NCBI GenBank assembly: GCA_964389685.1
Contig: CAYMFM010000004.1
Coordinates: forward strand, 1,310 to 65,309
Direction: 5' to 3'
Source of the DNA: an uncultured Rikenellaceae bacterium
GTDB lineage: Bacteria; Bacteroidota; Bacteroidia; Bacteroidales; VadinHA17
Length of the DNA stretch: 64,000 nucleotides
Shown here piece by piece: positions 908 through 58,988 of this stretch. The notes beneath the pieces are model-generated. The model searched no databases. It was given only the letters and a program-made list of their open reading frames with translations, and was not told the DNA's origin. The position numbers and the translations under genes are program-made. Every line of letters starts with the position of its first letter. Position 1 is the stretch's first letter.

Positions 908-3282
908 TGGCAAAGAGGAACAAATCGAAACAGAAATCGCAAAGAAAGAGCAGGTTGATCATGTTTTTCAGAGATGATCGCACAAAGCTTGTTCTTGGCC
1001 TTTCCATCATTGTTTTTGCCCTCTATCTTTCCCTGGCTTTTATATCCTATCTTTTCTCCTGGAAAATTGATCAAAGTTTCGAATGGTCAAGGATTTTTTC
1101 AGGTCCGGAGGTACAGGTCGAGAACTGGTCAGGAAAAACCGGAGCCTGGTTTGCTTATTTGTTCATGGACCGCTGGTTTGGCATTGCTTCTTTTTCCATC
1201 CCTTTTTTACTTCTGATCATAGGATTAAGGTTACTGAACCTGAAATTATTACCCCTCTGGAGAACCATCAAAATTACAGTGGTTGCCACGATTTTACTAT
1301 CGGTAACTTTCGGATATCTTTTTAGCAATTCGGGTGGTTTTCTGGGCAGCGGACTGGGAGGAAATCATGGTTTTGTTGTGAGTAACTGGCTTAACGCATT
1401 TATCGGAAAGATTGGAACAGCATTTCTTTTACTGGTTGCAATCATCGCTTTCTTCCTTTTTTCCTTCAACGTTTATTTTCCATGGATACGTTTTCGAAAG
1501 AAGGAGAAGGATGTAACGGGTGAACAGGAACCGGTGGGTGGTAAGGGTATCGTATCGGTTTTGCCCGGGGATGATGAAGAGGAAGAGGGGGATGAGACCG
1601 ATTATGATCCATTTGATGACAAGCCGGGTAAGGAAGAAACAGCTGCAGTGGATGACAACGCGGGTAATAAGGATGGTGTGAAGATGACCGTAGAAGAAAA
1701 GAGGGAAAATGATCTGTACGATGAAAGTGAGATAGAACGGAGGCCCCTGGAGCCTTATGATCCGACGCTCGATCTTTCTTCCTACACTCCGCCTCCTGTT
1801 TCGCTGCTTGATCAATATGATGGTGAAGATTCCACGGTCAGCAAGGAGGAATTAATCGGCAATAAGAACAGAATCGTTGAGACGCTTGCTAACTACAAGA
1901 TCCAGATTGACCGGATCAAAGCAACCATTGGCCCGGCGGTTACCCTCTATGAAATAGTTCCTGCACCCGGTGTACGAATATCCAAGATCAAGAACCTGGA
2001 AGATGATATTGCCTTAAGCCTATCCGCTCTCGGAATCCGGATCATTGCTCCCATACCCGGGAGGGGAACAATTGGCATTGAGGTTCCGAACCAGAACCCG
2101 GAGATCGTTACGATGCGATCGATGATTACATCACGTAAGTTCCAGGAGTCGGACTTTGACCTGGGTGTTGCGATAGGGAAGACTATTTCAAATGAAACCT
2201 ATGTTGTTGACTTGACCCAAATGCCACACCTTTTAATTGCCGGCGCTACCGGACAGGGGAAATCGGTCGGTTTAAATGCTATCATTGCATCCCTTCTCTA
2301 CAAGAAGCATCCGTCGGAATTGAAATTTGTGCTGATTGATCCGAAAAAGGTGGAACTAACCCTCTATACACGGTTAGAAAGGCATTTTCTTGCGAAGATT
2401 CCGGGGATCGAAGAACCCATCATTACGGATACTCAGAGTGTAATCAATACATTGAACTCACTGACCATTGAAATGGATCAACGCTACGATCTGTTGAAAA
2501 TGGGTCAGGTGCGTAACATCAAAGAATACAATACAAAATTCAAGGAGCGCAAGCTGAATCCTGATAAGGGGCACCGCTATTTGCCCTACATTGTGCTGAT
2601 CGTTGATGAATTTGCAGATCTGATCATGACTGCCGGAAAAGAGATTGAAACGCCTCTGGCAAGGTTAGCTCAGATTGCCAGGGCTGTTGGTATTCATCTG
2701 GTTATAGCAACACAACGACCAACCACCAACATCATCACAGGGGTTATCAAAGCCAACTTTCCCGTTCGGATTGCATTCCGTGTGACTTCCATGATAGACT
2801 CAAGGACGATCCTTGACAGCCCGGGAGCCAATCAACTGGTTGGGCGTGGGGATATGCTCATACTCCCGGGAGGGAGTGACCTTATCAGGCTCCAGTGTGC
2901 ATTTATTGGTAGCAATGAGATCGACCGGATTACTGATTTTATCGGTTCACAGAGAGGTTACCCAACGGCATTCATGCTTCCCGAATATTCAGACGATACG
3001 TCGGATGAACTGGATGAGATTGATCTGCAAAAGCGCGATCCTCTGTTCGATGAAGCGGCCAGAATGGTGGTTTTGCACCAGCAGGGTTCAACTTCACTGA
3101 TCCAGCGAAAATTATCCATTGGTTACAACCGTGCAGGCAGGATAATTGATCAACTCGAAGCAGCAGGGATTGTCGGGCCATTTGAAGGGAGCAAAGCGCG
3201 GCAGGTTCTGCTGACAGATGAATACTCTTTGGAACAGTTTTTGCGAAAACTGGATGAAAGCTCTTCATTGGGAACGGAGTAA
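907..3282 (+). CDS. ftsK: DNA translocase FtsK/SpoIIIE
   Basis: 791 aa. N-terminal TM helices, an acidic/Pro-rich linker, a motor domain with Walker A GATGQGKS and Walker B LIVDEFADL, and a C-terminal gamma winged-helix (LIQRKLSIGYNRAGRIIDQLE). Confidence 0.95.
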   Translation: MAKRNKSKQKSQRKSRLIMFFRDDRTKLVLGLSIIVFALYLSLAFISYLFSWKIDQSFEWSRIFSGPEVQVENWSGKTGAWFAYLFMDRWFGIASFSIPFLLLIIGLRLLNLKLLPLWRTIKITVVATILLSVTFGYLFSNSGGFLGSGLGGNHGFVVSNWLNAFIGKIGTAFLLLVAIIAFFLFSFNVYFPWIRFRKKEKDVTGEQEPVGGKGIVSVLPGDDEEEEGDETDYDPFDDKPGKEETAAVDDNAGNKDGVKMTVEEKRENDLYDESEIERRPLEPYDPTLDLSSYTPPPVSLLDQYDGEDSTVSKEELIGNKNRIVETLANYKIQIDRIKATIGPAVTLYEIVPAPGVRISKIKNLEDDIALSLSALGIRIIAPIPGRGTIGIEVPNQNPEIVTMRSMITSRKFQESDFDLGVAIGKTISNETYVVDLTQMPHLLIAGATGQGKSVGLNAIIASLLYKKHPSELKFVLIDPKKVELTLYTRLERHFLAKIPGIEEPIITDTQSVINTLNSLTIEMDQRYDLLKMGQVRNIKEYNTKFKERKLNPDKGHRYLPYIVLIVDEFADLIMTAGKEIETPLARLAQIARAVGIHLVIATQRPTTNIITGVIKANFPVRIAFRVTSMIDSRTILDSPGANQLVGRGDMLILPGGSDLIRLQCAFIGSNEIDRITDFIGSQRGYPTAFMLPEYSDDTSDELDEIDLQKRDPLFDEAARMVVLHQQGSTSLIQRKLSIGYNRAGRIIDQLEAAGIVGPFEGSKARQVLLTDEYSLEQFLRKLDESSSLGTE

Positions 3283-3943: not shown

Positions 3944-4981
3944 TATTGGCTGCTTATTAGTTGGATTCATGCATAAGACAGATTACGGAGAAGGAGTTCA
4001 TGAAGGTGGAGGATTGATGTAATTTACTCGCCCTGATAAATCATTCCTCGTGTAATTCACTTTCCGCCGGCGGATAACGTAATTCGTTCGTTCGCCACCT
4101 GACTGCCGTGTATTTCTTCAATATTTAGGTAACAGATTTTTGATTCATATTTTATGATCTATTTAGCTATCCAATAGACGAATTTTTCATGCGTATTCTG
4201 GAGTATATAAAGAAGAGAATCCCGGAGGGATTAAAGTATGAATAGCCCGGTACAAGCCCCGACAATCTCGTCGGAGCGCAGTGCCGGGTATTGAGATGAG
4301 ACTTAACCCGAAAAATTCTTTGAATTTTTCGCCATTTATGGCTGACGAAAAGTCAAATTCAAGTATGTTAACTGTTTCACTCAACAGTTATCTTCAAAAC
4401 TGATGAAAATTTCATACCCAAACTTGAGGGTATTGAATTTGACTTTTATCAGGGTTAACCCTGACATATATAATTGATAATCAATAGATTTCAATTATGT
4501 GTCGTCATTATTCATGCTGAATGCATGAATAATTCGGGTTAAGACCAACCCCGGATGCCTGCCTGCCGGCAGGCAGGGGGTTGAATATTATTACGTTAAA
4601 AAGAAACATTCAACCCCTTTAGGGTTGTAAATCATCTGTTACAAAGCACCACCGGTGACAACCGGTGGTTATTCAATGTTCTACCCCTGTCGGGGTATGA
4701 TAATGATTTTAAATCAAAATTAAGTTGAACAAGACAGAATATCACGTAAGAATAAATAAGAAGAACAACATTGTTACCGAAATTGTGAAGTATTACACTG
4801 CTGGCGGACTCACTGTTATTTATACGCTGACGCGAATGTTATTCATTGTTATTACACATTATTTAGCACTTACCGGGAATCACTTAATAACGGTCGCATA
4901 GCGACCAAATAACCATAAATAACGCTCCCGAAGGGAGCAAATAACCACTTAATTATTACCACTTTCCCATTACTGATTAAC
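3944..4981. repeat. 1038-bp ORF-free region densely packed with short perfect stem-loops
   Basis: Hand-mapped hairpins (5-10 bp stems, 3-8 nt loops) at 4309-4331, 4369-4390, 4414-4433, 4508-4532, 4558-4577 (20-nt perfect palindrome), 4648-4669, 4682-4697, 4892-4906 and 4924-4938. Only one short implausible ORF (4187-4384) is present. Confidence 0.7.
4300..4546. mobile_element. possible MITE-like or inverton-like unit bounded by an imperfect 19-bp inverted repeat
   Basis: Left arm gacttaacccgaaaaattc (4300-4318) versus the reverse complement of the right arm gaataattcgggttaagac(c) (4527-4546). 16 of 19 positions match and the interior is about 208 bp. The left arm recurs at 9843-9883. Confidence 0.3.
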
Positions 4982-7135: not shown

Positions 7136-7189
7136 TCGTTCAGGTATCTATAAATCACATACATGCAATTCCTCAGAATGGAATCGTCA

Positions 7190-7197
7190 CAAAGGTA
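7190..7197 (-). promoter_or_regulatory. Bacteroidota sigma-A -7 box (TAccTTTG on the minus strand) upstream of pgpH
   Basis: Plus strand caaaggta equals minus strand TACCTTTG, matching the TAnnTTTG consensus, 55-62 nt upstream of the ATG at 7135. The 8-mer is individually weak, since many chance matches are expected. Confidence 0.35.
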
Positions 7198-7668
7198 AAA
7201 CATTATTTTGAAATGCAGTATCGCATTTCGTTGGTCGGTTACGAATCCCGTTTCGAAATCCGGTTACGAAATTTGGGACAATGGAATCACTCAGGAATGC
7301 TAATCACCTTCGGGATAAAATCATCCTGGTACTTTGGTTCGTTTCTTTTGATCGTTCAACCCCGAAGGGCTCATGAACACCTTTGAAAATAAACAATTAA
7401 GTGAGTAAAAGAGATGAACTGGGATTTCCTCGAAGGGGTCCCTATGAAATAATCCCATGGTATTGGATATTCGTCATGGTACGTTGCTATTTCACAGGGC
7501 CTGTAGCAAATCGATCCATTTGGGATTCTCTCATTAATAAGGGTTCCTGCATTCCGCCGGATGAAACGTATGGTTTTTCAAACAACCAAGCAGTTCCGGC
7601 AATTTATGTTGCGTTACCTTTACCCCGGCTTAAAAGCCGGGGCTATTGACTTTTAACCACTCTGTGGT

Positions 7669-7706
7669 TAATATCCCCAATCGCCCGAAGGGCGAATAAC
7701 CGCCTT
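7669..7706. repeat. hairpin repeat copy: ATCCCCAA-tcgccc-gaa-gggcga-ATAACCGCCTT
   Basis: Near-identical to 8214-8252. The hairpin lies at 7681-7695. It is preceded by two further hairpins: ccccggc/gccgggg at 7623-7642 and ttaaccac/gtggttaa at 7652-7670. Confidence 0.7.
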
Positions 7707-8123
7707 ATAAGAATTGCGTATGAAAACCGGGACGTAGGGTAAATGCCAGAAAGATAAAATGCTGTCTGATCCCGCCTTTGCCTGCCCTACCTGCATTGCA
7801 AGTAAACAAGATTCTCAATAAGCCACAACCTCTACCAGCCGATTCATAAAGCAGCCCATTACGGAGAACCACTGTGGATAAATCCTACCAGTCCCTAATA
7901 ATTTGATCAATTTCTCAACCAGCGAAGAAAACGTAGCAGATTTGCAGCAGGAAGAGGCGGGAGAGTTCATTTTATCTGTGCCTGCTGGGTCCCCTGGTTT
8001 TCAAGCAATTCTTATGCAGCGGGAGCTTTCTTTGCTACCTTTCTTTTGCGGAAAAAGAAAGGTAGGCAAGCCGACCGGGCACGGCGCGCAGAAAAATGGC
8101 TTGTGTGTAAGACTTCATAAAAA

Positions 8124-8148
8124 AGAGGCTGCTTTTTGAGCAGCCTCT
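8124..8148. terminator. orphan bidirectional intrinsic terminator-like hairpin
   Basis: agaggctgc (8124-8132), loop tttttga, gcagcctct (8140-8148). An A6 run lies upstream, which is a T6 tail on the minus strand. The plus-strand tail is actattttta. It is not downstream of any credible CDS. Confidence 0.5.
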
Positions 8149-8213
8149 ACTATTTTTATGTATTATAACGATTTAATGAAGTAGCGTGATATTTCCTGCT
8201 TTCTTGAATCGTT

Positions 8214-8283
8214 TACGATCCCCAATCGCCCGCCAGGGCGAGTAACCGCCTTCTGCCGAAGGCCCGCCTGCCGGCAGGTATGA
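8214..8283. repeat. hairpin repeat copy plus GC palindrome cluster
   Basis: ATCCCCAA-tcgccc-gcca-gggcga-GTAACCGCCTT (hairpin 8226-8241). Then gccttc-tgcc-gaaggc (8248-8263). Then the 12-nt palindrome cctgccggcagg (8267-8278). Confidence 0.7.
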
Positions 8284-8382
8284 CAATTGTATCGACCCTG
8301 TGAAATAGAGGCAACACCGCTCCTTCTAAGCAGAATTACACATGGTGAATAAATGCATGGCTCTCGCATGACAAAAAATTTA

Positions 8383-8390
8383 TACCTTTG
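8383..8390 (+). promoter_or_regulatory. Bacteroidota -7 box TAccTTTG upstream of the C40 peptidase gene
   Basis: Exact TAnnTTTG match 21 nt upstream of the ATG at 8411. Confidence 0.45.
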
Positions 8391-8410
8391 GATACTTTTT
8401 TTATTCCATA

Positions 8411-9202
8411 ATGAAGTATGGTGTAATTCATTGTTCATTAGCAGCCATTCGCAAGGCACCAAGCGAGAAAAGTGAAATGGTTAACCAGATGATTTTTGGA
8501 GAGCATGTAACCATTCACAAGGTGCTCCGTCGCTGGATGTATGTTGAATCTGCGTATGACGGGTATTCCGGGTGGATAAACAGTCTCTCACTCATTCCAC
8601 TTGCGAATGATCAGCTTATTCATTTTAATGATAAGAACTCAGTCGTTCTTCCACGGTTGAGCAGGGCGGTTGTCCATGAGCAGCGGGAATTATACATCCA
8701 TCTGGTTCCTGGTTCCCTGTTGCCATCCTATGATGGGGGAAATGGAGATTTCCGTCTTGGAGATCAGCGCTATAAGCTTGACAATCCGGTTGAGCAGGAG
8801 ATCATGAAGCTGGACCGGACTGGTGTTGTAAATACCGGTTTTGCATTTTTGAATTCGCCCTACCTGTGGGGTGGAAGGAGTCCTTTTGGCATTGACAGTC
8901 CGGGATTAATCCAGGTTGTAGGGAAGATTCACGGAGTCTGCCTTCCAAGGGAAGTGGATCAGCAGGTTACTTACGGATCAATTGTAAACTTTATTGAAGA
9001 GGCAGAACCGGGTGATTTGGCCTTTTTTGACGATGAAGAGGGGAAAATTGCACATGCAGGGATTATAGTTGATAAGAGCAGTATCCTACACGCATCTGGA
9101 AGTGTCAGAATCGATGCAGTCGATCATCAGGGAATATTCAGGGAAGATACCGGTGAATATACGTACAGGCTCCGCGTAGTAAAAAATATCATAGATCCTT
9201 AA
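8411..9202 (+). CDS. SH3b + NlpC/P60 (C40) family peptidoglycan peptidase-like protein, nucleophile Cys replaced by Ser
   Basis: 263 aa. YLWGGRSPFGID-S-PGL where the family has DCSGL. Downstream are AHAGIIV and ILHAS (the His residues). Confidence 0.8.
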   Translation: MKYGVIHCSLAAIRKAPSEKSEMVNQMIFGEHVTIHKVLRRWMYVESAYDGYSGWINSLSLIPLANDQLIHFNDKNSVVLPRLSRAVVHEQRELYIHLVPGSLLPSYDGGNGDFRLGDQRYKLDNPVEQEIMKLDRTGVVNTGFAFLNSPYLWGGRSPFGIDSPGLIQVVGKIHGVCLPREVDQQVTYGSIVNFIEEAEPGDLAFFDDEEGKIAHAGIIVDKSSILHASGSVRIDAVDHQGIFREDTGEYTYRLRVVKNIIDP

Positions 9203-9749: not shown

Positions 9750-9842
9750 AAGTCAAGGGAAAAGTTATAAGTTATTAGTTATAAGTATCTGAGACTATAA
9801 TTTCAGGAGTAAATATACGAACTGAAATTAAAAGGTCTAAAG

Positions 9843-9883
9843 TTAACCCGAAAAATTCAAAGAATTTTTCGCCATTTATGGCT
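9843..9883. repeat. 41-nt double-hairpin repeat (second copy of 4303-4343)
   Basis: ttaacccgaaaaattc-aaa-gaatttttcgccatttatggct. It is identical to 4303-4343 except that the 3-nt loop is aaa instead of ttt. Confidence 0.8.
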
Positions 9884-9892
9884 ATCTTGATC

Positions 9893-10450
9893 TTAGAGTA
9901 ACAGGATTAAGGCGGCTACAGGGATGGTAAGACCCAGGGCGGTCATCCACCATCCCCTGCCGGCAATTCCGTTTTTCCCACGGATTATCAACAGACCGGT
10001 GATAGTAATAAGGATAAGAGCCACACAGAAGATATCAGAGAACCAGGTCCACCATCGAATCGGGTTATAATGCAGGAAATTGACCTGGTGAAAAAGTGGT
10101 CTTCTTCTGATCTTTTCGATCAATCCGTTGCCCGATTTCAGGTTTATATAAACCGATCCGCCTGCAATGAAGACCTTCAGCTGGTCGTCAGCAGGGAAAT
10201 AGTGTTTTTTGTATGTTTCTTTCTCCCCAAGTTGTTCCAGAAGCTTAATGACGGCGGCTTCAGTCAATTCCTCTCTGGTGTAGGATTTATCAAGCTGGAT
10301 TTCTTTTGTCTGGATGATGTAGTTTGGATTCCAATCCTTGATATGATTAAGGGCGATGCCTGACAAGGCATATATGATGGTCATTCCCGTAAAAAAATAA
10401 CTCAGATCCCGGTGTAAAACCCGGTTCCATTTTCTCCACCTGATCTTCAC
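9893..10450 (-). CDS. PepSY-associated TM helix domain protein
   Basis: 185 aa. The N-terminal WRKWNRVLHRDLSYFFTGMTIIYALSGIALNH motif and the C-terminal TM helices are typical of PepSY-TM proteins. Confidence 0.6.
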   Translation of the reverse strand: MKIRWRKWNRVLHRDLSYFFTGMTIIYALSGIALNHIKDWNPNYIIQTKEIQLDKSYTREELTEAAVIKLLEQLGEKETYKKHYFPADDQLKVFIAGGSVYINLKSGNGLIEKIRRRPLFHQVNFLHYNPIRWWTWFSDIFCVALILITITGLLIIRGKNGIAGRGWWMTALGLTIPVAALILLL

Positions 10451-18814: not shown

Positions 18815-19417
18815 ATGGATCTAAAGGATATTTTAGCTATTTCTGGTTATCCGGGACTCTTTAAATTTGTTTCCCAGGGTAGAAATGCCATCATTGTTGA
18901 GAATTTAGAAACCAAGAAGCGCATGAGTGCATTTGGTTCTGAACGGATCAGCTCATTGGAGGAGATCTCGGTCTATACCGATGAAGAAGACCTGCCGCTT
19001 GTTGATGTGGTTAAAAAGATTTTTGAAAAGGAGGGGAATAAACCAGCCATTGATCCCAAATCCCCACCGGAGAAACTGAAAAACTATTTTTCTGAAATTA
19101 TTCCTGGCTATGACAGGGATCGTGTATATACCTCGGATATTAAGAAAATTTTGACATGGTATAACCTGATGCATAAACTGAAGATGGTGAAGTTTGACAA
19201 GGAGAAGGAAAAGGAGGGAAAAGAGCAGGATTCGAAAGAGAAAAAGGCGGGTGATTCGGTCTCTGCTACCGGGAAGAAAACCGCCGGAAGTAAAGCGACA
19301 AGCCAGTCCCAAAAAGCCTCCGGAAGTAAAACGGCAGGCCAGGCAAAAAAAACCTCCGGAAGTAAAGCGCTAAACCAGTCAAAGAAAGCCGTGAAAAAAG
19401 GAACATCCGGAAAGTAA
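18815..19417 (+). CDS. DUF5606 domain protein with Lys/Ser/Ala-rich histone-H1-like tail
   Basis: N-terminus MDLKDILAISGYPGLFKFVSQGRNAIIVENLETKKR. The C-terminal 60 aa contain repeats KTAGSKATSQSQKASGSKTAGQAKKTSGSKA. Confidence 0.65.
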   Translation: MDLKDILAISGYPGLFKFVSQGRNAIIVENLETKKRMSAFGSERISSLEEISVYTDEEDLPLVDVVKKIFEKEGNKPAIDPKSPPEKLKNYFSEIIPGYDRDRVYTSDIKKILTWYNLMHKLKMVKFDKEKEKEGKEQDSKEKKAGDSVSATGKKTAGSKATSQSQKASGSKTAGQAKKTSGSKALNQSKKAVKKGTSGK

Positions 19418-36330: not shown

Positions 36331-36900
36331 ATGAAAAAGATGGTTGTAACACAAATCATGATTTTTTTACTGGCAGTAACCCCTGGTTCGAATATTTTCT
36401 CCCAGCAGGGCAGGGGATTGGGTCCATGTGGATTGGGACTCGGACCGGGAAATTTTCCAAACTACCGGATATTGGACCTGACGGAGGAGCAGAAGACACA
36501 AATGAGGGAATTATGGCTTGAGCAATCGGAGGTTCTAAGCCCTCTGAATACAGAATTGCAGAAGCTCAGATTAGCCTATTGGGATCTTATTGCTGAATCA
36601 GATGAAGACCTGGATGCGATCAACAAGAACATAGACCAGCAAACTGATCTGCAGAAAAAAATCATGAAAGAAAATGCTCGTTTCAGAAAAAAAATGGAAG
36701 GGGTATTAACAGAAGAACAAAAGGAGTTGCTTGATTCGGAATTTCCTTTTGGCAGAGGCATGTATGGAAGATGGAATCCACCCGGACGCGGATACGGTCA
36801 GGGATACAGGGATGGATTTGGTAGAGGTTATGGCAGAGACTATGGACGAGGCTATGGCAGAGGCTATGGCAGAGGATTTGGACCGGGTGGAATCTGGTAG
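36331..36900 (+). CDS. Spy/CpxP-family periplasmic protein with C-terminal GYGRG repeat tail
   Basis: Signal peptide and two LTEEQ motifs (LTEEQKTQMREL, LTEEQKELL). The last 40 aa read GRGYGQGYRDGFGRGYGRDYGRGYGRGYGRGFGPGG. Confidence 0.65.
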   Translation: MKKMVVTQIMIFLLAVTPGSNIFSQQGRGLGPCGLGLGPGNFPNYRILDLTEEQKTQMRELWLEQSEVLSPLNTELQKLRLAYWDLIAESDEDLDAINKNIDQQTDLQKKIMKENARFRKKMEGVLTEEQKELLDSEFPFGRGMYGRWNPPGRGYGQGYRDGFGRGYGRDYGRGYGRGYGRGFGPGGIW

Positions 36901-40445: not shown

Positions 40446-41879
40446 ATGAAAAAAATAATTATCGGCATATTGGCCATCTGTAACATCGGCTGGTCTTTCA
40501 CTCAGGAAAACAAATGGACCCTGGCAGAATGCATTCAGCATGCCCTGGACCGGAATATTACGATAAACCAGAGGAAGCTAAACAATGAGTTATCTGAAAT
40601 AACCCTGGAACAATCCAAAGCCGATTTGCTGCCTAACCTTACGGCTTCAGGAAGTCAGAGCTGGAACTTCGGACGGTCCGTTGATCCCTATACCAATGAT
40701 TATGTTAGTACAAATGTCGGGAGCAATAATTTTGGATTAAGCACCAGCGTAACCCTGTTTGACGGATTGCAGAGTATTAATACCATTAAAAAGAACCAGA
40801 TTGATGTGGAATCGGGGACACTGGATCTTGAGCAAACAAAGAACGATATCATTCTCAGTGTCACACAGGCTTACCTGCAGGTCCTTTTTGCCTATGAACA
40901 GGTCGAAAATACCTCCATCAGCCTGGAATCTACCGCTGCCCAGGTGGAGAGAACGCAAAAACTGGTGAATGCAGGAAGCTCTCCTGAAGGGGATCTTTTC
41001 AAGATCAATTCGCAGCTTGCGTCCGATCAGTACAGCCTGGTAAATGCAGAAAACCAATTATCCATGGCCAAAGTGAACCTGATGCAGATCATGGAATTGC
41101 CGGTCGAAGAGGAATTTGATGTTGTCATCCCAGAATTTGATGTTACAACAATCGGAATTGCCTATTCCGGAGCGTCTGATGAAATCTATGCAAAAGCACT
41201 GGAGGTTCAACCGGAAATAGAAAGCTCGCAACTTAAGGTTGCCAGTGCCGAGCAGAGCCTGAAAATTGCCAGGGGTGCCCTCTATCCGCGACTTTCACTA
41301 TCTGGAAGCCTGGGTTCTGGATATTCCAATGCACGAACCCTGAGGCAATATGGAGAGCCAACTACAGTGATTCAGGAGGTTGGATATTTGCAAAGTGACC
41401 CTTCAGAAATTGTTGTAGCTGAACGGGAGTTTACTTCATCTTCAATCGCTGACTATAATTTTGGTAATCAGATCAGGGATAATTTGAACGAATCGGTGAG
41501 ACTGAGCCTTAGCATTCCCATCTTTAACCGGTTCCAGGTGAGAAACAACATCAGCCGTTCAAAAATCAATGTCGAAACGGCTGAACTGAACAAACAGAAT
41601 ACAGAAAACCAGTTGAGAAAAACAATCGAACAGGCGTATAACGATCTTGTATCTTCCGCTAAAAATTATGACGCTGCAGTGGAGCAACTGAAATCCCTGG
41701 AGCGTTCCTATAATGACACGGAACGAAAATATGAACTGGGTATGGTCAATGCGACCGATTATCTCATTGAAAAAAATAACTTTGAGAATTCAAAGTATAG
41801 CCTCACGAGGGCAAAATATGAATACATTTTTACCTTTAAGATCCTTGATTTTTACCAGGGGAATCCGATTACCTTTTGA
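40446..41879 (+). CDS. tolC: TolC-family outer-membrane efflux protein
   Basis: 477 aa. Signal peptide and two tandem OEP repeats (LTLEQSKADLLPNL..., ALYPRLSLSGSLG...). Confidence 0.88.
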   Translation: MKKIIIGILAICNIGWSFTQENKWTLAECIQHALDRNITINQRKLNNELSEITLEQSKADLLPNLTASGSQSWNFGRSVDPYTNDYVSTNVGSNNFGLSTSVTLFDGLQSINTIKKNQIDVESGTLDLEQTKNDIILSVTQAYLQVLFAYEQVENTSISLESTAAQVERTQKLVNAGSSPEGDLFKINSQLASDQYSLVNAENQLSMAKVNLMQIMELPVEEEFDVVIPEFDVTTIGIAYSGASDEIYAKALEVQPEIESSQLKVASAEQSLKIARGALYPRLSLSGSLGSGYSNARTLRQYGEPTTVIQEVGYLQSDPSEIVVAEREFTSSSIADYNFGNQIRDNLNESVRLSLSIPIFNRFQVRNNISRSKINVETAELNKQNTENQLRKTIEQAYNDLVSSAKNYDAAVEQLKSLERSYNDTERKYELGMVNATDYLIEKNNFENSKYSLTRAKYEYIFTFKILDFYQGNPITF

Positions 41880-41907: not shown

Positions 41908-43320
41908 ATGAAAAAGAAACTTATAATTACAGCCGTTGTCCTGATACCGGTAGTTATTGCAGGATTTTTTATTCTCAGAAAGGATAAAACATTTGATATA
42001 GAATGGGAACCCAAAGAGGTTGAGAAAGGAGACATAAACATTGAGGTGACTGCAACCGGAACCCTGGAAGCAGTAACCGAAGTTGAGGTTGGAACTCAGG
42101 TTTCCGGTATCCTCTCCGAATTATATGTGGATTTTAATTCAAAAGTCAGGAAAGGACAGGTGATCGCAAGACTGGATACTACCACGCTTGCAGCCCAGGT
42201 ATTCGATTCCAGAGCAAACCTTGAACGGGTAATGATCCGTTTGAACCAGGCTGAACGGGATTGGAAAAGAACCCAGCAACTTTTTGAAGAGAAAGTGGTA
42301 GCCCAGGTGGAGTATGACCAGGCACTCGATGACTATGAAACCGCCAAATCAAATGTACTATCGGCTGAGGCACAGCTAAACAGAAATATTATTAACCTGA
42401 ATTACGCAACCATCACAGCTCCCATCGATGGAATTGTGATTTCAAAAAATGTCGAAATGGGACAAACCGTTGCTGCCAGTTTTAACTCACCCACGCTTTT
42501 CAATATCGTGAATGATCTGACAAAGATGCAGGTGGAAGCCAGTGTGGATGAAGCAGATATCGGTCAGATCAAGGAGGGGCAGAGTGTTACTTTTACGGTA
42601 GATGCTTTTCAGGATGAACAGTTTGAAGGAGTGGTCCGGCAGGTTCGCTATCAGCCGGTCATTGTTTCCAATGTGGTAAACTATACGGTCATTGTAGATG
42701 TAGCCAACCCGGATATGAAGCTGCTTCCCGGAATGACAGCCAATATAACCGTGAATATTGATAAGCGGGAAGATGTATTGAAGGTTCCCTCCCGGGCACT
42801 TAGCTTTACTCCTCCTACAGTATACCTTGCGCTTCTATATGCAGAACTGCCGGATTCAGTCAAACAGCAGCAGGAAGAGAGAATCGCTGAAATGACAGAA
42901 CGGATGGAGTCTATGGGATTGTCACAGCAGCAAATCGACCAGATGGTCGAACGGGTGAGATTGATGGGAATATTTGGGGGTGGACAGCAACAACGCCCTG
43001 AAGGAATGGCCAGGAGGTTGGGTGGCGGTACGACTGGAGGTCAGAGAACTTCGGGAGAGATGCCTCAAACGGGCAATAGATCGCAACGTTTTGGCAATTT
43101 TGGGCAGGTGTGGATAAAAGATGGAGAAGGAGTGCGACCTGTACGGGTGCGAACAGGGATCACCGACGGCAGTAATGTGGAAATCATTAGTGAAGAACTG
43201 GAAGAAGGTACATTGGTTGTGATATCAGCATTGTATGATGAAGAGCAGGAAGAACAGGTAACCCAGACAAACAACCCATTTGCACCTGCCGGTCCGGGTA
43301 GAGGAAGAAGGATGAGGTAG
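41908..43320 (+). CDS. macA: MacA/HlyD-family periplasmic adaptor subunit with Gln/Gly/Arg-rich insertion
   Basis: TGTLEAVTEVEVGTQVSGIL lipoyl motif, a coiled-coil hairpin, and a beta-barrel. A low-complexity insert of about 90 aa includes GGGQQQRPEG...GGGTTGGQRTSG (42976-43104). Confidence 0.85.
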   Translation: MKKKLIITAVVLIPVVIAGFFILRKDKTFDIEWEPKEVEKGDINIEVTATGTLEAVTEVEVGTQVSGILSELYVDFNSKVRKGQVIARLDTTTLAAQVFDSRANLERVMIRLNQAERDWKRTQQLFEEKVVAQVEYDQALDDYETAKSNVLSAEAQLNRNIINLNYATITAPIDGIVISKNVEMGQTVAASFNSPTLFNIVNDLTKMQVEASVDEADIGQIKEGQSVTFTVDAFQDEQFEGVVRQVRYQPVIVSNVVNYTVIVDVANPDMKLLPGMTANITVNIDKREDVLKVPSRALSFTPPTVYLALLYAELPDSVKQQQEERIAEMTERMESMGLSQQQIDQMVERVRLMGIFGGGQQQRPEGMARRLGGGTTGGQRTSGEMPQTGNRSQRFGNFGQVWIKDGEGVRPVRVRTGITDGSNVEIISEELEEGTLVVISALYDEEQEEQVTQTNNPFAPAGPGRGRRMR

Positions 43321-43682
43321 GTTTGAGTTATGCCATAGGCCCGCCTGCTGCGGGCAGGCATCCCTTCGGGATAAGTTAATGGTTGAAAGTTAGTGGTGAG
43401 TAATGAGTCCCGCCTACTCCGTCAGCTGACGGATACGGCAGGCGAGGGGTGAGAGGTGAGATGGAGTGACTAAGAGACGAGGAGACTGTGTGACGGGTAA
43501 CGGAGGATAGGAAGAATAAAGAAGCAAAGGGAAGGATGAAGGATGAAGGATGAAGGATTAAGGATGAAGGATGAAGTAGCAAAGAGCAAAGAGTATAGAG
43601 TAAGGGGAAAAAACCGGGAGCAGTGACGAGTGACGAGTGACGAGAAAAAATAGTTAACATCTATTCAAGGGAGTTAAAATTT
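43321..43682. repeat. intra-operon spacer A: GC hairpin cores plus an array of about 28 degenerate heptanucleotide repeat units
   Basis: One continuous 7-nt register from 43447 to 43644. GAAGGAT x6 at 43531-43572 and GTGACGA x3 at 43623-43643. Hairpins at 43339-43359 and 43360-43372, and a 16-nt palindrome at 43418-43433. Confidence 0.85.
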
Positions 43683-44426
43683 ATGGATAAAATCATTTCA
43701 GTACGAAACCTGACCAAGGTGTACGATATGGGGTTGGTGAAGGTGCATGCTTTACGTGGTATAGATCTGGATATTTATACGGGAGAATTCACCGCCATTA
43801 TGGGTTCCAGCGGATCCGGGAAGTCAACCTTTATGAATATTGTTGGTTGCCTCGATCTTCCAACCGAAGGTGAATATTTCCTGGATGGCAAAGATGTGAG
43901 TAAATTGAACAAAGACCAGCTGGCCAAAACGAGAAACCTGAAAATAGGATTTGTGTTTCAAACATATAACCTGTTGTCCAGGACTTCAGCACTGGAGAAT
44001 GTCGAGTTACCTTTATTATATAATCCTTCAATTCGAGCAAAAGAGCGTAAGGAGAGGGCCATGCAATCCCTTGAAATGGTGGGACTGGCCGATTGGCACC
44101 ACCATTATCCAAACCAGTTATCTGGTGGACAACAACAGCGGGTGGCTATAGCAAGGGCTTTGGTTAACAACCCGGTAATAATTCTTGCCGATGAACCAAC
44201 CGGTAACCTCGATACCCGTACCAGTTATGAAGTAATGGAGATTTTCCAGGATCTGAATAGCAGGGGAATGACCATAACCCTGGTTACACACGAATATGAT
44301 ATTTCCCAGCTGGCCGGAAGAGTTGTGAGTTTCCGTGACGGGAGGGTTAGTAAGGAGATGGTTGTTGAGAAGATAAGGAATGCGCGTGATGAGCTGGCAA
44401 AACTTCCTGTAGAAGATGAATATTAA
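43683..44426 (+). CDS. macB: MacB/LolD-type ABC transporter ATP-binding protein
   Basis: Walker [10 protein letters not shown], signature LSGGQQQR, Walker [12 protein letters not shown]. Confidence 0.92.
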
Positions 44427-44444
44427 TAGTAAAATCATGAAAGC

Positions 44445-45671
44445 ATGAAAATACTCAACTTATTTGTTGTCGCATACCGGTCGCTGAACAAGAACAAAGT
44501 CCGGTCATTACTTACCATGCTTGGGATAATTATTGGGGTGGCATCGGTGATCGCTATGATTGCTATAGGACAGGGTTCAAGGGATAGTATTGAAGAACAG
44601 ATCTCCAGCATGGGAACGAATGTAATCATGCTTTTCCCGGGTGCATCGTTCCGGGGAGGTGTTGCAACTGCAGCCGGTGAGGCACAAAGCATAAATATGG
44701 AAGATGTTAATGCTATCCGGGATAATTGTCCATCGATTAAATACATCAGCCCGGTTTCCAGGGCAAGCGGACAGGTGATCGCTGGCAATAGTAACTGGAA
44801 CACACAGGTGTACGGAGTATATCCGGAATATATGGGTATTCGCAATCTCGAGATCTCCTCCGGTGAGATGTTTACCGATGTTGATGAGCGAAGATCAGCT
44901 AAAGTTTGCATCATTGGGACTACAGTGGCTGAAAACCTCTTTGACGAGTATACAGATCCTGTCGGACAAAAGATACGGATCCGGAATATTCCCTTTACCA
45001 TAATCGGAGTGCAAAAGAAAAAGGGTGGAAGCAGCATGGGATCCGATCAGGATGATATCATTTATGCTCCCTATTCAACCGTCCAGAAACGGATGAGGGG
45101 CGGAACCTCAACCAACGTGCAGCAAGTTTACCTTTCCTCTATATCGGAAAAGCATATTGAAAAAGCAAGTGAGGAAATTGACCAGCTGTTGCGGGATCGA
45201 AAGAAACTGAGCCGGTATGAAGATCCTCCCTATATGATCCGGACTCAAAGTGAAATTACAGAAATGTTTACATCCACTTCCGATACGATGATCATCCTGC
45301 TTGCCAGCATAGCCAGCATTTCACTGATCGTAGGAGGAATCGGGATCATGAATATCATGCTTGTTTCCGTAACGGAAAGAACAAGGGAAATTGGACTGCG
45401 TATGGCCGTAGGGGCAAGGGGAAGAGATATCCTGCGCCAGTTTCTCCTGGAAGCAGTATTGCTTAGCCTTATTGGCGGATTAATTGGTGTGGGAGGAGGA
45501 ATAGGCGCATCCAAACTGCTCGTCTCTGTTATGAACTGGCCGGTTTCTGTAACATCCTATTCCATTATTCTTGCCTTTGCATTTGCTTTCGTTATCGGTG
45601 TATTCTTTGGGTGGTACCCGGCACGAAAAGCTGCCTTACTTGTACCAATGGATGCGTTGAGGTATGAATAA
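44445..45671 (+). CDS. MacB-type ABC transporter permease (MacB periplasmic domain + FtsX domain)
   Basis: 408 aa. TM1, a periplasmic domain of about 220 aa, then three C-terminal TM helices with the FtsX-type motif TREIGLRMAVGARGRDI. Confidence 0.9.
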   Translation: MKILNLFVVAYRSLNKNKVRSLLTMLGIIIGVASVIAMIAIGQGSRDSIEEQISSMGTNVIMLFPGASFRGGVATAAGEAQSINMEDVNAIRDNCPSIKYISPVSRASGQVIAGNSNWNTQVYGVYPEYMGIRNLEISSGEMFTDVDERRSAKVCIIGTTVAENLFDEYTDPVGQKIRIRNIPFTIIGVQKKKGGSSMGSDQDDIIYAPYSTVQKRMRGGTSTNVQQVYLSSISEKHIEKASEEIDQLLRDRKKLSRYEDPPYMIRTQSEITEMFTSTSDTMIILLASIASISLIVGGIGIMNIMLVSVTERTREIGLRMAVGARGRDILRQFLLEAVLLSLIGGLIGVGGGIGASKLLVSVMNWPVSVTSYSIILAFAFAFVIGVFFGWYPARKAALLVPMDALRYE

Positions 45672-46044
45672 AGTGACGGGTGACGAGTGACGAGTGACGA
45701 GTTCCGCCTACGTCAAGACTGCAGCGGACAAGAGATGAGAAATGAGAGGTGAGTTTTGAGTTGTGAGAAATGAGTAGTGAGTTGACTTTGTAAAAGTGAG
45801 ACTTTGTGACGATGAGAGGTGAGATAGAGCGACGAAGCGACTGAGAGACGGAGAGATGAAAGCTGTCACCAGTCCGAAAAAACAAGAACTAAAAACTGAA
45901 ACCAAATTGTTGAACCACAAATATTCATAATAAAAACATCTATTAACATTCTTGTCACGCGTCACGCGTTACTCGTCACTTTTACACAATGTTAACCGAA
46001 AACTATTAACAATATCAATACTAATCCTTTAAAACTAAACAATC
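45672..46044. repeat. spacer B: heptanucleotide repeat array bounded by inverted GTGACGR arrays
   Basis: GTGACGR x4 at 45673-45700. NNNTGAG units in one register from 45733 to 45823. The reverse-complement array gtcacgc gtcacgc gttactc gtcac lies at 45954-45979. Confidence 0.85.
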
Positions 46045-46782
46045 ATGAAAAGAATCAGTACAATTATCCTGCTTATTGCATTTATTGCAGTAGGAAACGG
46101 ATTTGCTCAGAGTCTTGAGGAGATCCTGAAAAGTCATGCAGAAATAATGGGATTTAACAAGCTTGCCGGCGCCAAGACCATCATCATAACCGGTAAAAGC
46201 CAGAGAGGGGAAAATGACAGCCCGTTCACCATTTACATCAAAGGTGAAAAATCCCGGTATGAGTCCGATTTTATGGGTAATAAAATGGTCAGGGCCCACG
46301 ACGGTAAAACGGGTTGGATGAGGAATCCCCGCGATGGCAGTATCATGGAACTTGAAGGCAGACAGCTGGAACAAATGAGCCAGGCAACCCAGTTGGGTGG
46401 GATCCTGTACCAGTGGAAGGAGAAAAATTTCAAGATCGGATTGGAAGGAAAAGAAAAATTTGAAGGTACTGATGTATTTAAACTAAAGGTTACCAGGGAG
46501 GATGATGTGGTGACCTATGCCTATCTTGATTGCGAGAGCTATGTCCTCCTTAAGCAGACTTCAGTACGGGTTTTCCAGGGCAATGAATTTGAATCCACAA
46601 CAGTATTCAGTAATTATCAGATGGTTGAGGGTGTAGCAGTGGCTTTTAATTCAGAGACAGCATCTGCCGGAGGTGGTGGCCAGGGCAGAGGTGGCAGAGG
46701 TATGGGTGGAACGCAGGTCATTGAGAAGGTCGAATTCAACAAACCCATTGATGATGCATTGTTTAAAAGACCGGAAAAATAA
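46045..46782 (+). CDS. LolA-fold outer-membrane lipoprotein-sorting-like protein with Gly/Arg-rich segment
   Basis: Signal peptide MKRISTIILLIAFIAVGNGFAQ and a LolA-like beta-rich sequence. The segment AGGGGQGRGGRGMGG is encoded at 46666-46710. Confidence 0.55.
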   Translation: MKRISTIILLIAFIAVGNGFAQSLEEILKSHAEIMGFNKLAGAKTIIITGKSQRGENDSPFTIYIKGEKSRYESDFMGNKMVRAHDGKTGWMRNPRDGSIMELEGRQLEQMSQATQLGGILYQWKEKNFKIGLEGKEKFEGTDVFKLKVTREDDVVTYAYLDCESYVLLKQTSVRVFQGNEFESTTVFSNYQMVEGVAVAFNSETASAGGGGQGRGGRGMGGTQVIEKVEFNKPIDDALFKRPEK

Positions 46783-57349: not shown

Positions 57350-58732
57350 ATGTTTAAAACTGAAACTTACAAAAACAGAAGAGCACGGCTGAAGCAGGAT
57401 ATGCAGGATGGAATTATTCTGCTTCCCGGAAATGAAGAAAGTCCGATGAACTACACGGATAATCCTTACCGTTTCAGACAGGATAGTTCATTTCTCTATT
57501 TTTTTGGCCTCGATTATCCAGGACTGGTCGGTTATATAAATATTGACAGCGGGAAAGAGATCATTTTTGGAGATGACCTGACCATCGATGACGTTATCTG
57601 GATGGGAATGAAACCCTCGCTGCTGGAAAGAAGCAAACCGATTGGGATTAATACGGTGTTGCCCTTCTGCTGTCTTCAGGATTATGTAGATGAAGCCATT
57701 AAAAAAGACCGTAAAATTCATTTTCTGCCACCCTATAGAGCGGAGAATAAGATCACGCTCTGGAATCTGACCGGGATCCCACCCGGTAAGATCAATGAAG
57801 CGGCATCTGTTGACCTGATAAAAGCTGTTGTAAACCAGCGTAATTATAAGACTCCGGAAGAGATCGATGAGATTGAAAAAGCGGTTAACATTACCGTGGA
57901 TATGCACCTTGCAGCCATGAAAATGGCTCAACCCGGAATGACCGAAGCCCAAATTGCCGCCAGGGTTCACGAAATCGCACTGGCTGGCGGAGGAGATATC
58001 TCCTTCCCGATAATCGCTACGATACATGGGGAAACATTGCACAATCATTATCATGGAAACCGGTTGGAGAGCGGACAACTATTCCTTCTTGATGCAGGAG
58101 CCGAAACAGCCATGCATTATGCCGGGGATATGTCAAGCACATTTCCGGTTGATAAAACGTTTACCGGTAGACAAAAAGAAATCTACCAGATTACACTGGA
58201 TGCCCACCTGGCTGCTGTAAACATGTTGAAACCAGGAGTGAACTTTAAAGATGTTCATCTTTCAGCTTGCCGCACAATTGCCGCCGGAATGAAAGATATG
58301 GGTTTTATGAAGGGTGATGTTGATGAAGCCGTGGAAAAGGGAGCTCATGCACTGTTCTTCCCTTGTGGTACAGGTCATATGATGGGACTGGATGTTCACG
58401 ACATGGAAGACCTTGGAGAGATTTATGTTGGGTACGACGGACAACCCAAAAGCTCACAGTTCGGATTGAAATCATTGCGGTTGGGACGCCCCCTGGAACC
58501 CGGGTTTGTATTGACCATTGAACCGGGAATCTACTTCATCCCCGAATTGATCGGACAATGGAAAGCGGAGGGCAAATTCAAAGAGTTCATAAACTATGAC
58601 AAGGTGGAGCAGTACAAAGATTTCAGCGGTTGCCGGAATGAAGAGGATTTTGTCATTACAGAAACGGGCGCCAGGTGCCTGGGGAAACTGCTTCCAAAAA
58701 CAATCGATGAAGTGGAAAAAGCAAGAGGATAG
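57350..58732 (+). CDS. pepP: Xaa-Pro aminopeptidase (M24B family)
   Basis: Creatinase-like N-domain plus pita-bread domain. Metal ligands sit in LLDAGAE..YAGDMSSTF, GTGHMMGLDVHD, LTIEPGIY and NEEDFVITE. The ATG at 57350 is preferred. Confidence 0.85.
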   Translation: MFKTETYKNRRARLKQDMQDGIILLPGNEESPMNYTDNPYRFRQDSSFLYFFGLDYPGLVGYINIDSGKEIIFGDDLTIDDVIWMGMKPSLLERSKPIGINTVLPFCCLQDYVDEAIKKDRKIHFLPPYRAENKITLWNLTGIPPGKINEAASVDLIKAVVNQRNYKTPEEIDEIEKAVNITVDMHLAAMKMAQPGMTEAQIAARVHEIALAGGGDISFPIIATIHGETLHNHYHGNRLESGQLFLLDAGAETAMHYAGDMSSTFPVDKTFTGRQKEIYQITLDAHLAAVNMLKPGVNFKDVHLSACRTIAAGMKDMGFMKGDVDEAVEKGAHALFFPCGTGHMMGLDVHDMEDLGEIYVGYDGQPKSSQFGLKSLRLGRPLEPGFVLTIEPGIYFIPELIGQWKAEGKFKEFINYDKVEQYKDFSGCRNEEDFVITETGARCLGKLLPKTIDEVEKARG

Positions 58733-58988
58733 GGAGGAATGTAAATAATGAATAATGAATATTGAATACTGAATTTTGAAACAGGACGTAAGGAAGAATG
58801 GAGGAGTTCAAGGTTCAGAGTACAGAGTTGGAGAGGTGAGTTATGAGTTATGAGTGAAAAGAAATTGAATTATTACATAATGATGCCTGCCCGACGGTTT
58901 ACCAGCCTGTGGCTGGCAGGCGGGTCTCTGGCATAACTTATAACGTATCAACTTATAATGTATTAACTTATCAACTTATACCCGTCCC
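58733..58988. repeat. spacer C: heptamer arrays of opposite polarity flanking a GC hairpin core
   Basis: AATAATG-type units at 58744-58785 and GAGTTCA/GAGTTAT-type units at 58804-58858. GC core at 58885-58921. ATAACTT-type (reverse polarity) units at 58933-58980. Confidence 0.85.

Follow-up and report, generated by a model that had tools for sequence, protein, structure and literature searches.

A heptanucleotide repeat cluster in the macA-macB spacer of an uncultured Bacteroidota bacterium

STRR (short tandemly repeated repetitive) sequences were reportedly described from heterocystous cyanobacteria by Mazel et al. in 1990. Three heptanucleotides of this kind are ascribed to Calothrix PCC 7601 in a secondary citation (PMC4692102). 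Long simple sequence repeats (LSSRs) form a broader category. As summarised in PMC4679880, heptanucleotides are their most abundant class in most prokaryotic genomes, and polymerase slippage was suggested as the cause (Mrazek 2007); as summarised there and in PMC4692102, LSSRs are mostly non-coding (Mrazek, Guo and Shah 2007). Heptameric repeats are over-represented in bacteria and have been put down to polymerase slippage (PMC4692102, PMC4679880). Here we examine a cluster of such repeats in a 64,000-nt stretch of DNA (the window) from an uncultured Rikenellaceae bacterium, contig CAYMFM010000004.1. The cluster lies in spacer 1, the 362-nt gap between a macA-like membrane-fusion gene and the macB-type ABC (ATP-binding cassette) ATPase gene of an efflux operon. 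We conclude that spacer 1 belongs, as a Bacteroidota example, to a class of bacterial intergenic repeats that is already on record yet poorly understood; it is no new kind of element.

The closest counterparts come from two studies of 2015. MacGregor reported direct repeats of TAACTGA and other heptamers in Beggiatoaceae, Cyanobacteria and five Bacteroidetes (PMC4679880). In the Bacteroidetes (Flexibacter litoralis, Gramella forsetii, Aequorivita sublithincola, Elizabethkingia anophelis and Paludibacter) the heptamers form larger intergenic assemblages, and this report contradicts an earlier note on the present DNA, made from its sequence alone, which held that no Bacteroidota equivalent had been described. 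Heptamer arrays in Cyanothece carry indels in 7-nt increments, and protein binding and translational regulation were proposed as roles of heptamer repeats (PMC4679880). Rehm described G-rich heptamers, GGGAATC in Xanthomonas and GGGGAYT in Nostoc, that are located between aligned ORFs (open reading frames) and inside operons, including at pecE-pecF (PMC4692102). These stand on the coding strand, with the stop codon 0–50 bp away or overlapped, and are under-represented between divergent ORFs. They are mostly transcribed, comprise perfect and heterogeneous units as well as inverted arrangements, and vary in length among close relatives (PMC4692102). We found no systematic work on bacterial heptamer repeats later than these two papers.

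Spacer 1 has a pronounced period of seven nucleotides. With a match defined as a base identical to the base 7 nt downstream, and 1000 dinucleotide-preserving shuffles as the null, the lag-7 match in 43447–43644 is 0.586, compared with 0.339 ± 0.033 after shuffling (z 7.5). Harmonics appear at lag 14 (z 5.4) and lag 21 (z 3.9), and other lags are not enriched. For the whole of spacer 1 the lag-7 z is 9.2, and in the 64-kb window period 7 is the sole enriched period when periods 2–15 are compared. Tandem Repeats Finder (TRF) calls arrays of GAAGGAT ×6.6, AGCAAAG ×2.3, AGTGACG ×3.3 and AGGTGAG ×3.1 in the spacer, with 80–100% matches. The earlier note had named an excess of period 7 over shuffled controls as the check on its proposal, and this excess is clear; the units it listed are all confirmed in place, and the gap does separate a macA-like from a macB ATPase gene, both annotated by Pfam.

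The single register proposed in the earlier note holds in part. Of the roughly 28 units into which 43447–43644 had been cut, those in the period-7 blocks between 43531 and 43644 stand. The first 12 ‘units’ (43447–43530, 84 nt), by contrast, have a lag-7 match of 0.38 (z 0.9) with a higher signal at lag 8 (z 3.0), and the short run at 43376–43408 is off register by 4 nt. About 40% of the claimed lattice is therefore not demonstrably periodic. Any sequence can be cut into 7-mers, so that cutting without a frame break is in itself no proof of a lattice. Period 7 can be demonstrated at 43376–43408, in two adjacent unit pairs of the degenerate part, at 43531–43607 and at 43622–43644; the stretch 43573–43621 has a lag-7 z of 3.5. 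Compared with the heptanucleotide LSSR/STRR-like class, 43531–43607 and 43622–43644 are tandem 7-nt repeats and 43447–43530 is not, and the arrays share the non-coding location of the class, sitting between Pfam-supported genes. GTGAG/GTGACG-type units at 43447–43460, 43489–43502 and 43622–43642 share a phase expected by chance about once in 49, which lends weak support to a common ancestral lattice. Judging from the sequence, the lattice also appears to extend across the macA stop codon: GAAGGAT at 43307, within the last macA codons (GAAGGAT GAGGTAG), is the unit of the ×6 array 220 nt downstream, and TGAGTTA at 43324 is a unit of spacer 3, one of the other heptamer loci described below. MacA ends here in GRGRRMR before its stop; in a relative (L014, 9940–9962) it ends in PRGRR.

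The composition of the tract 43447–43644 is equally skewed. It is purine-rich and nearly C-free, as first described, with 80% purine, 7% C (14 C in 198 nt, where a hand count had given about 11) and a C/G ratio of 0.17. Its antisense strand has a C/G ratio of 5.7, with ∼40% C and 7% G. Across the whole of spacer 1 each sense frame contains 9–13 stop codons, and each antisense frame 3–4.

At this locus strain variation is confined to the array. An identical ATPase is encoded on seven metagenome contigs from seven samples; the full spacer 1 is identical in five of them, and its 3′ end in a sixth. The seventh, L007 (a Logan contig from SRR8556772; L-numbers denote our comparison loci, which are fetched loci of relatives and metagenome contigs), has a spacer shortened by 20 nt. 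Missing from it are exactly two GAAGGAT units (14 nt) together with a further 6 nt, and two single-nucleotide polymorphisms (SNPs) set it apart as well. The lost units and both SNPs fall in the core array 43531–43607. These four changes are the only ones in 1515 aligned positions, and all are in the array; the coding sequence on its flanks, over 1,100 nt of it, has none. Unit-number variation in multiples of 7 is thus seen in one variant contig, which also has the 6-nt deletion, and it supports the earlier suggestion of a slippage-prone, length-variable element.

Most relatives lack the spacer. The relatives were drawn from the GTDB species set; the closest are Bacteroidales and other Bacteroidota metagenome-assembled genomes (MAGs) with at most 72% ATPase identity, and none closer than 72% amino-acid identity was found among the genome contigs of that set. 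At 17 of the 24 Bacteroidota loci the gap before the ATPase gene is 4–37 nt, the upstream gene being of membrane-fusion type but unannotated. Because the junction is this tight in the nearest relatives, spacer 1 is, as judged from the loci compared, lineage-specific and not ancestral to the operon. Where relatives have longer gaps or arrays, these are simple sequence repeat (SSR)-like and unrelated in sequence to spacer 1. In L014 an array of (ACAGTGA)3(ATAGTGA)2 continues into the ATPase start. The ATPase gene of L048 is flanked on both sides by AATAACG/AATAGTG arrays and inverted CACTATT arms, and L032 has ATAAAAG-type units. In L021, a Bacteroidales MAG, the 203-nt gap (9798–10000) opens with period-8 units, GCGACCTG ×2 and ATGGAGAN ×4; elsewhere (8333–8458) this locus carries a palindromic GAAGACG/CTTCCGA heptamer pair. 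Array-bearing genomes carry arrays at multiple junctions, L014 and L021 at three each, and arrays are therefore a property of the genome and not of the macA-macB junction.

Table 1. Coordinates of the efflux operon, the parts of spacer 1 and the other heptamer loci in the 64-kb window
Feature	Position	Strand	Remarks
AAGTTAT ×3.6 small array	9762–9786	+	Between two minus-strand genes
TolC-like outer-membrane efflux protein (OEP) gene	40446–41879	+	First gene of the four-gene efflux operon
Membrane-fusion gene, HlyD/MacA-type (macA)	41908–43320	+	Pfam-supported
Heptamer-like units GAAGGAT GAGGTAG GTTTGAG TTATGCC	43307–43338	+	Overlap macA stop codon; read from the sequence
Spacer 1 (macA-macB gap), 362 nt	43321–43682	+	Between macA-like gene and ATPase gene
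GC-rich palindromic (REP-like) element AGTTATGCCAnAGnCCCGCCTGC...CGGGCAGGCATC	43326–43362	+	Contains both alternative pairings of 43339–43359
Small hairpin atccc-ttc-gggat	43360–43372	+	CCTTCGGGATAA recurs at 7307–7318
Short heptamer run AAGTTAA TGGTTGA AAGTTAG TGGTGAG TAATGAG	43376–43408	+	Lag-7 match 0.62, z 3.4; 4 nt off main-tract register
Second GC hairpin, CCGCCTAC foot and perfect 16-nt palindrome tccgtcagctgacgga	43409–43446	+	Breaks up heptamer runs; palindrome 43418–43433
Purine-rich degenerate tract	43447–43530	+	Pairs GGGTGAG/AGGTGAG and TGTGACG/GGTAACG only; L007 6-nt deletion here
Core array GAAGGAT ×6 (one TAAGGAT), then derived GAAGTAG, CAAAGAG ×2, TATAGAG, TAAGGGG	43531–43607	+	TRF score 85, 94% matches
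AGTGACG ×3.3 array	43622–43644	+	TRF; unit also opens spacer 2 after permease stop codon
A/T-rich ordinary leader, non-repetitive	43645–43682	+	38 nt before ATPase ATG; invariant among strain contigs
ABC ATPase gene	43683–44426	+	Pfam-supported
Permease gene, MacB_PCD/FtsX	44445–45671	+	Downstream of ATPase gene
Spacer 2, whole	45672–45979	+	Lag-7 z 8.2
Spacer 2 G-rich/C-poor arm: AGTGACG ×4.4, CCGCCTAC hairpin, then GAGATGA/GGTGAGT/GTGAGAA-type (also GAGAAAT-type) heptamers	45672–45860	+	C/G 0.32
Spacer 2 inverted arm GTCACGC ×3.7	45954–45979	+	TRF; inverted-pair scan
Spacer 3, whole	58744–58985	+	Built like spacer 1
Spacer 3 C-poor arm: AATAATG-type, degenerate units, TGAGTTA ×2.7	58744–58860	+	Lag-7 z 7.0; C/G 0.15
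Spacer 3 GC palindromic element, longer inner hairpin	58882–58938	-	Rearranged in L217
Spacer 3 G-poor arm, ATAACTT-type units	58933–58985	+	Ends few nt before ATG 58989

The cluster is not specific to the efflux operon but one of several in this genome (Table 1). The window has 27 intergenic gaps that measure 50 nt or more. A lag-7 z of 7 or higher is reached in three of them, each flanked by co-directional genes, and a sliding lag-7 scan of the window gives a signal only in spacer 1, at 45653–45809 and at 58696–58883. With the small array at 9762–9786, the 64 kb hold three strong array loci and a small one. The spacers have the units AGTGACG, TGAGTTA and GAAGGAT in common, and spacers 1 and 3 also a GC element. 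In spacer 2 the AGTGACG array and the GTCACGC arm are predicted to pair with each other over ∼30 bp in a long-range helix (RNA fold z −2.58). The ATAACTT-type units of spacer 3, read as TAACTTA, stand near a start codon and are one mismatch from the published TAACTGA; in the sense orientation of its genes the array at 9762–9786 likewise places ATAACTT just before a start codon. Look-ups through the permease and OCD proteins found spacers 2 and 3 identical in other samples, except for a rearranged GC element in L217.

The direct AGTGACG arrays at 43622–43644 and 45672–45702 bracket the ATPase and permease genes, ∼2 kb apart, and the unit occurs elsewhere in the window as one inverted copy, at 45974. 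Such flanking arrays could promote deletion or duplication of the ATPase-permease module. Two tandem repeats inside ORFs, 36 nt ×3.1 at 19277–19387 (ORF 18815–19417) and 12 nt ×4.8 at 36819–36875 (ORF 36331–36900), have a period divisible by three. These presumably encode protein repeats and are unrelated to the heptamer arrays.

GC-rich hairpins are set among the heptamer runs of spacer 1, and those listed in the earlier note are all present: both mutually exclusive pairings at 43339–43359, the atccc-ttc-gggat stem and the 16-nt palindrome. The first hairpin belongs to an element that resembles repetitive extragenic palindromic (REP) sequences. In a blastn search of the window it matches the copy in spacer 3, on the opposite strand, over 21/23 and 12/12 positions, and 8260–8271 over 12/12 positions, part of a partial copy in the region 8260–8282. 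The 64 kb thus contain two clear copies in opposite orientations and one partial copy. The element folds at −20.7 kcal/mol (z −1.3), and the second GC hairpin at −19.4 kcal/mol (z −1.4). In spacers 1 and 3 each copy adjoins a GAGTTAT/ATAACTY heptamer. The motif CCGCCTRC occurs six times in the window compared with 1.3 expected, four of the six being inside the three repeat spacers. In the strain contig L217 (85–175) the GC element of spacer 3 is swapped for a short version resembling the spacer 1 copy, with an apparent footprint beside it. Read from sequence, this pattern suggests that the GC element is a mobile unit like REPs or miniature inverted-repeat transposable elements (MITEs).

Other short repeats are dispersed in the window. 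A ∼41-nt repeat, TTAACCCGAAAAATTC(TTT/AAA)GAATTTTTCGCCATTTATGGCT, occurs in two intergenic regions (4303–4345 and 9843–9885), the copies differing only in the inverted 3-nt hairpin loop. Short GC hairpins crowd two unusually long non-coding regions, 7136–8410 (1.3 kb) and 3944–4981 (1.0 kb), which have no Rfam or tRNA match. The former holds two copies of CCCCAATCGCCCG..GGGCGA.TAACCGCC (7675–7705 and 8220–8250), and a 13-nt tandem repeat, CGGTTACGAAATC ×2.9, lies at 7236–7272.

The purine tract is structure-poor, as had been supposed (−8.5 kcal/mol for 144 nt). We rejected a structured RNA or riboswitch, because the spacer matches no Rfam family and its fold is no better than that of shuffles (whole-spacer z +0.13). 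Rfam gave no match at gathering score in the whole window; of two chance-level matches (E 0.4–0.7) in 43000–46300, neither lies within spacer 1. The window contains no tRNA or tmRNA. Intrinsic terminators (a GC hairpin plus a T run) number zero in 43200–46100, compared with 2.2 expected in shuffles. Sigma-70-like promoter matches occur at chance level and none flanks the array. The Bacteroidetes-type TAnnTTTG box is not enriched in the window and none is near the ATPase start. In this organism such boxes stand just upstream of other genes. The sole one in or adjoining spacer 1 spans the stop codon of macA at 43318–43325 and is 365 nt away from where the ATPase gene starts.

Coding and related explanations were also examined. 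A hidden protein was rejected, the 94-aa antisense ORF being an S/L/P-rich, low-complexity sequence with no Pfam match (E ≤ 1), and so was an ORF at 43065–43361, again with no Pfam match at E ≤ 1. The 20-nt difference in L007 would frame-shift the antisense ORF, and a 27-aa ORF called by JGI in the array is made of the repeats and partly removed by the 14-nt deletion of L007. A G-quadruplex was rejected since neither strand of spacer 1 contains a (G3+N1-7)x3 G3+ motif. Nor does spacer 1 have the features of a phase-variable contingency locus: the array is untranslated, ends 38 nt before the ATG and has no flanking promoter elements.

Heptamer arrays are widespread and their arms are ordered. 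At least 120 metagenome contigs carry (AGTGACG)3; the 80 that we analysed range from 41 to 75% GC, and many show mixed-unit clusters and a forward-then-inverted layout. An inverted CGTCACT-like array lies within 400 nt downstream at 18 of these 80 loci and upstream at none, with 0–3 for control strings. When all fetched loci (L008–L207) and the window, with its pair at 45669–45981, were scanned irrespective of unit, inverted pairs of heptamer arrays numbered 50, the G-rich arm coming first in 42 and second in 6, an order that is the same when read on either strand. Neighbouring genes in these polarity and orientation counts are crude ORF calls, and the counts are approximate. Among the 22 G-first pairs with both neighbours callable, the flanking genes are convergent in 9, co-directional in 13 and divergent in none; the stop-adjacent arm is within ∼35 nt of the stop codon in nearly all of these 22. 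Where arrays of units other than AGTGACG follow a stop codon by no more than 40 nt, their sense strand is G-rich in 38 cases and C-rich in 16, and before start codons the trend reverses (12 G-rich, 18 C-rich). Single AGTGACG arrays between co-directional genes number 10 sense and 6 antisense, a count confounded by the lack of stops in the array antisense and by the unit's GTG, which mimics a start codon. In all three spacers of the window the G-rich strand is the coding strand directly after the stop codon, between aligned ORFs; spacer 1 carries the G-rich arm alone. The counts fit the strand rule reported by Rehm and are left unexplained by neutral slippage.

Long, perfect heptamer arrays that can form hairpins are found in L098 (oriented 2900–3090), L143 (1686–1869) and L117 (9288–9342). 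Examples are (AGTGACG)4 and TTGGATT units followed by ∼14 ATCCAAC units, and (AGTGACG)3 with (CGTCACT)3 13 nt apart. In L098 a ∼50-nt tandem repeat lies just downstream of the array.

We think it probable that spacer 1 is a slippage-grown, tolerated and probably co-transcribed heptamer cluster without a required function; its periodicity, its sister loci, its absence in relatives and the change of unit number between strains are observed, and its co-transcription and neutrality are inferred. A tight macA-macB junction would have been expanded by slipped-strand mispairing. Whole 7-nt units would be gained and lost, units would mutate and variants would re-expand locally, which would account for the blocks of 2–6 identical units beside decayed ones. 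The spacer is most probably transcribed within the tolC-macA-macB mRNA, since it has no terminator, no TAnnTTTG box stands by the ATPase start and the junction is tight in relatives. It would be tolerated where it does no harm, with sense stops in all frames, little structure, no hairpin-plus-T terminator and few C residues, and the 38 nt next to the ATPase start codon are an ordinary A/T-rich leader. Rho prefers C-rich, G-poor, unstructured RNA. The C-poor sense tract should therefore be a poor Rho loading site and cause no polarity even though it is untranslated.

Several observations weigh against this account. Neutral slippage alone leaves the preference for 7 nt unexplained, and it does not explain the recurrence of AGTGACG in organisms of very different GC content. 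The inverted arrays are polar (42 of 50 pairs G-rich first), and the post-stop arrays of non-AGTGACG units favour a G-rich sense strand (38 versus 16). Such regularities suggest selection or a dedicated mechanism. At the locus itself, the spacer polymorphism comes from one short Logan contig, L007, whose 6-nt deletion is not a whole unit, and the mutation rate is not extreme, since no other strain contig departs from the spacer sequence. Co-transcription is deduced only from missing terminator and promoter motifs, and a TAnnTTTG box does overlap the macA stop codon at 43318–43325.

REP sequences mediate differential mRNA stability in malE-malF, and MacA and MacB assemble in a 6:2 stoichiometry. 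Spacer 1 might by analogy be a functional intercistronic element, a reading that we regard as unlikely. Its hairpins would shield the tolC-macA mRNA from 3′–5′ decay in the manner of REPs, and its purine tract would uncouple ATPase translation so that MacA exceeds MacB, matching the subunit ratio of the pump; or the tract would bind an S1/Csp-like single-strand RNA-binding protein, as proposed for TAACTGA repeats. The arrangement of hairpins and a structure-poor tract between cistrons without a terminator is consistent with such a role, as are the heptamer arrays at the same type of junction in L014, L021, L032 and L048 and the roles in protein binding or translational regulation proposed by MacGregor in 2015 (PMC4679880). 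However, most of the closest relatives have a 4–37-nt junction and no spacer, the hairpin energies are unexceptional (z −1.3 to −1.4) and the sequence differs between strains. Arrays also occur at many junctions in array-bearing genomes (three each in L014 and L021), and no binding motif is conserved among the units. The tight junction in relatives and the lack of sequence conservation likewise disfavour the protein-binding platform and the translation re-initiation spacer put forward in the earlier note. The argument from reiterated AGGA/GGAUG motifs loses force because Shine-Dalgarno pairing is little used in Bacteroidota.

The polarity of the arrays invites a broader reading, in which heptamer arrays are a widespread polar 3′-end or intercistronic class under a shared constraint or mechanism, and not passive debris of slippage. 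On this view the arm beside a stop codon is, across many phyla, the G-rich one that bears stop codons, and its inverted partner is C-rich. We hold this reading to be doubtful. Were it so, the mechanism may be a dedicated binding protein or a sense RNA blind to Rho paired with an antisense RNA sensitive to it, and the macA-macB spacer may be a ‘half element’ insulating the operon's long gap of untranslated sequence. A specific functional version, to which we give a small chance, casts the array as a direction-selective transcription insulator. Its sense RNA would be invisible to Rho and cause no polarity, its C-rich antisense RNA would be an ideal Rho loading site at which antisense transcription is stopped, and the G-first order would arise from selection against an exposed C-rich arm. 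The C/G ratios of the tract (0.17 sense, 5.7 antisense) fit this proposal. So do the excess of G-first pairs (42 versus 6), their absence between divergent genes (0/22) and near-constant position by a stop codon, the G-rich sense strand of post-stop arrays (38 versus 16 and 44 versus 16) and the identical strand rule of Rehm 2015 (PMC4692102). However, single AGTGACG arrays between co-directional genes are only weakly oriented (10 sense, 6 antisense), the gene calls behind the neighbour and stop-codon counts are crude, and polarity might instead arise if only stop-containing units can abut or overlap a gene end.

We judge it similarly improbable that spacer 1 is a composite mobile element or its scars, with the GC palindrome, also written AGTTATGCCA...GGCAGGCATC, as a REP/MITE-like unit and the heptamers as by-products of repeated insertion, excision or repair at its target instead of independent SSRs. 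The same element with its adjacent GAGTTAT/ATAACTY heptamer is present in spacer 1 and, inverted, in spacer 3, the spacer 3 copy is replaced by a short version in L217 with an apparent footprint left behind, and CCGCCTRC feet are in excess (6 versus 1.3 expected). Yet most heptamer arrays in relatives and metagenome contigs have no GC element, which makes up only ∼10% of spacer 1, and slippage typically yields indels of 14 nt and arrays with at least six identical units. Near the spacers, where no search was aimed at them, neither a transposase nor a RAYT gene turned up. An assembly or sequencing artefact, or a small-protein or phase-variable coding sequence, deserves almost no credence: repeats are a classic source of mis-assembly, and a 27-aa JGI ORF and a 94-aa antisense ORF do exist, but the 362 nt are identical in five independent assemblies, with a sixth partial and a seventh carrying the shorter variant, which disposes of the artefact that the earlier note had flagged for checking, perfect blocks are at most 46 nt long and thus shorter than a read, and both ORFs are made of repeats, the antisense one without a Pfam match, and are frame-shifted (94 aa) or trimmed (27 aa) in L007.

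A slippage-grown, tolerated cluster thus remains our preferred reading, and it has consequences beyond this operon. Beyond heterocystous cyanobacteria, heptanucleotide clusters are common among uncultured Bacteroidota and many other environmental bacteria. They can swell a tight operon junction, from ∼10 to 362 nt, without obvious harm, which bears on operon prediction, on metagenome assembly and on strain typing, where the arrays are natural variable-number tandem repeat markers. Spacer 1 also cautions against reading function into purine-rich, AGGA-like tracts. The puzzles of the class are its 7-nt unit, the recurrence of units across phyla and the polarity of the arms. Extended to whole genomes, the polarity counts could serve to test if the repeats are shaped by transcription, by Rho or by constraints from stop codons.

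Among known systems, the GC hairpins recall REPs and bacterial interspersed mosaic elements (BIMEs) as short, imperfect, GC-rich palindromes that lie between genes or cistrons in either orientation with variable inner loops. The GC element differs in having 3–4 copies in 64 kb, and the likeness is one of form, with no sequence similarity established. With the tetra- and heptanucleotide SSRs of phase variation in Haemophilus and Neisseria the array shares slippage-driven change in unit number, but it lies outside any reading frame or promoter hexamers, and no obvious on/off switch would follow when an untranslated spacer of 362 nt gains or loses 7 nt. The LSSRs of Mrazek 2007, as far as the summaries cited above present them, are a general statistical category without a functional model, mixed-unit clusters or arm polarity.

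The comparison with STRR sequences drawn in the earlier note is apt for the class and not for the family. Both are intergenic tandem heptanucleotides, dispersed here over three strong loci and a small one in 64 kb, but the STRR1-3 units CCCCAGT, TTGGTCA and CAACAGT are absent, the units being GAAGGAT, CAAAGAG, AGTGACG and GGTGAG, and the phylum differs, the nearest relatives being Bacteroidales MAGs. As with the heptamers of Rehm, spacer 1 lies between aligned ORFs, on the coding strand by the stop codon, with perfect and heterogeneous units and a variable length. Unlike those heptamers, it has no regular G3+ tracts or G-quadruplex, its unit sequences are unrelated, and it has many unit types instead of one consensus. 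TAACTGA is absent from all three spacers of the window, and spacer 1 differs from the TAACTGA repeats of MacGregor in being purine-rich, in starting at a stop codon and ending 38 nt before a start codon where those repeats abut one, and in having GC palindromes. It is like the heptamer assemblages of MacGregor, however, in combining intergenic tandem 7-nt units with mixed heptamers, absence from the orthologous region of close relatives and 7-nt steps between strains.

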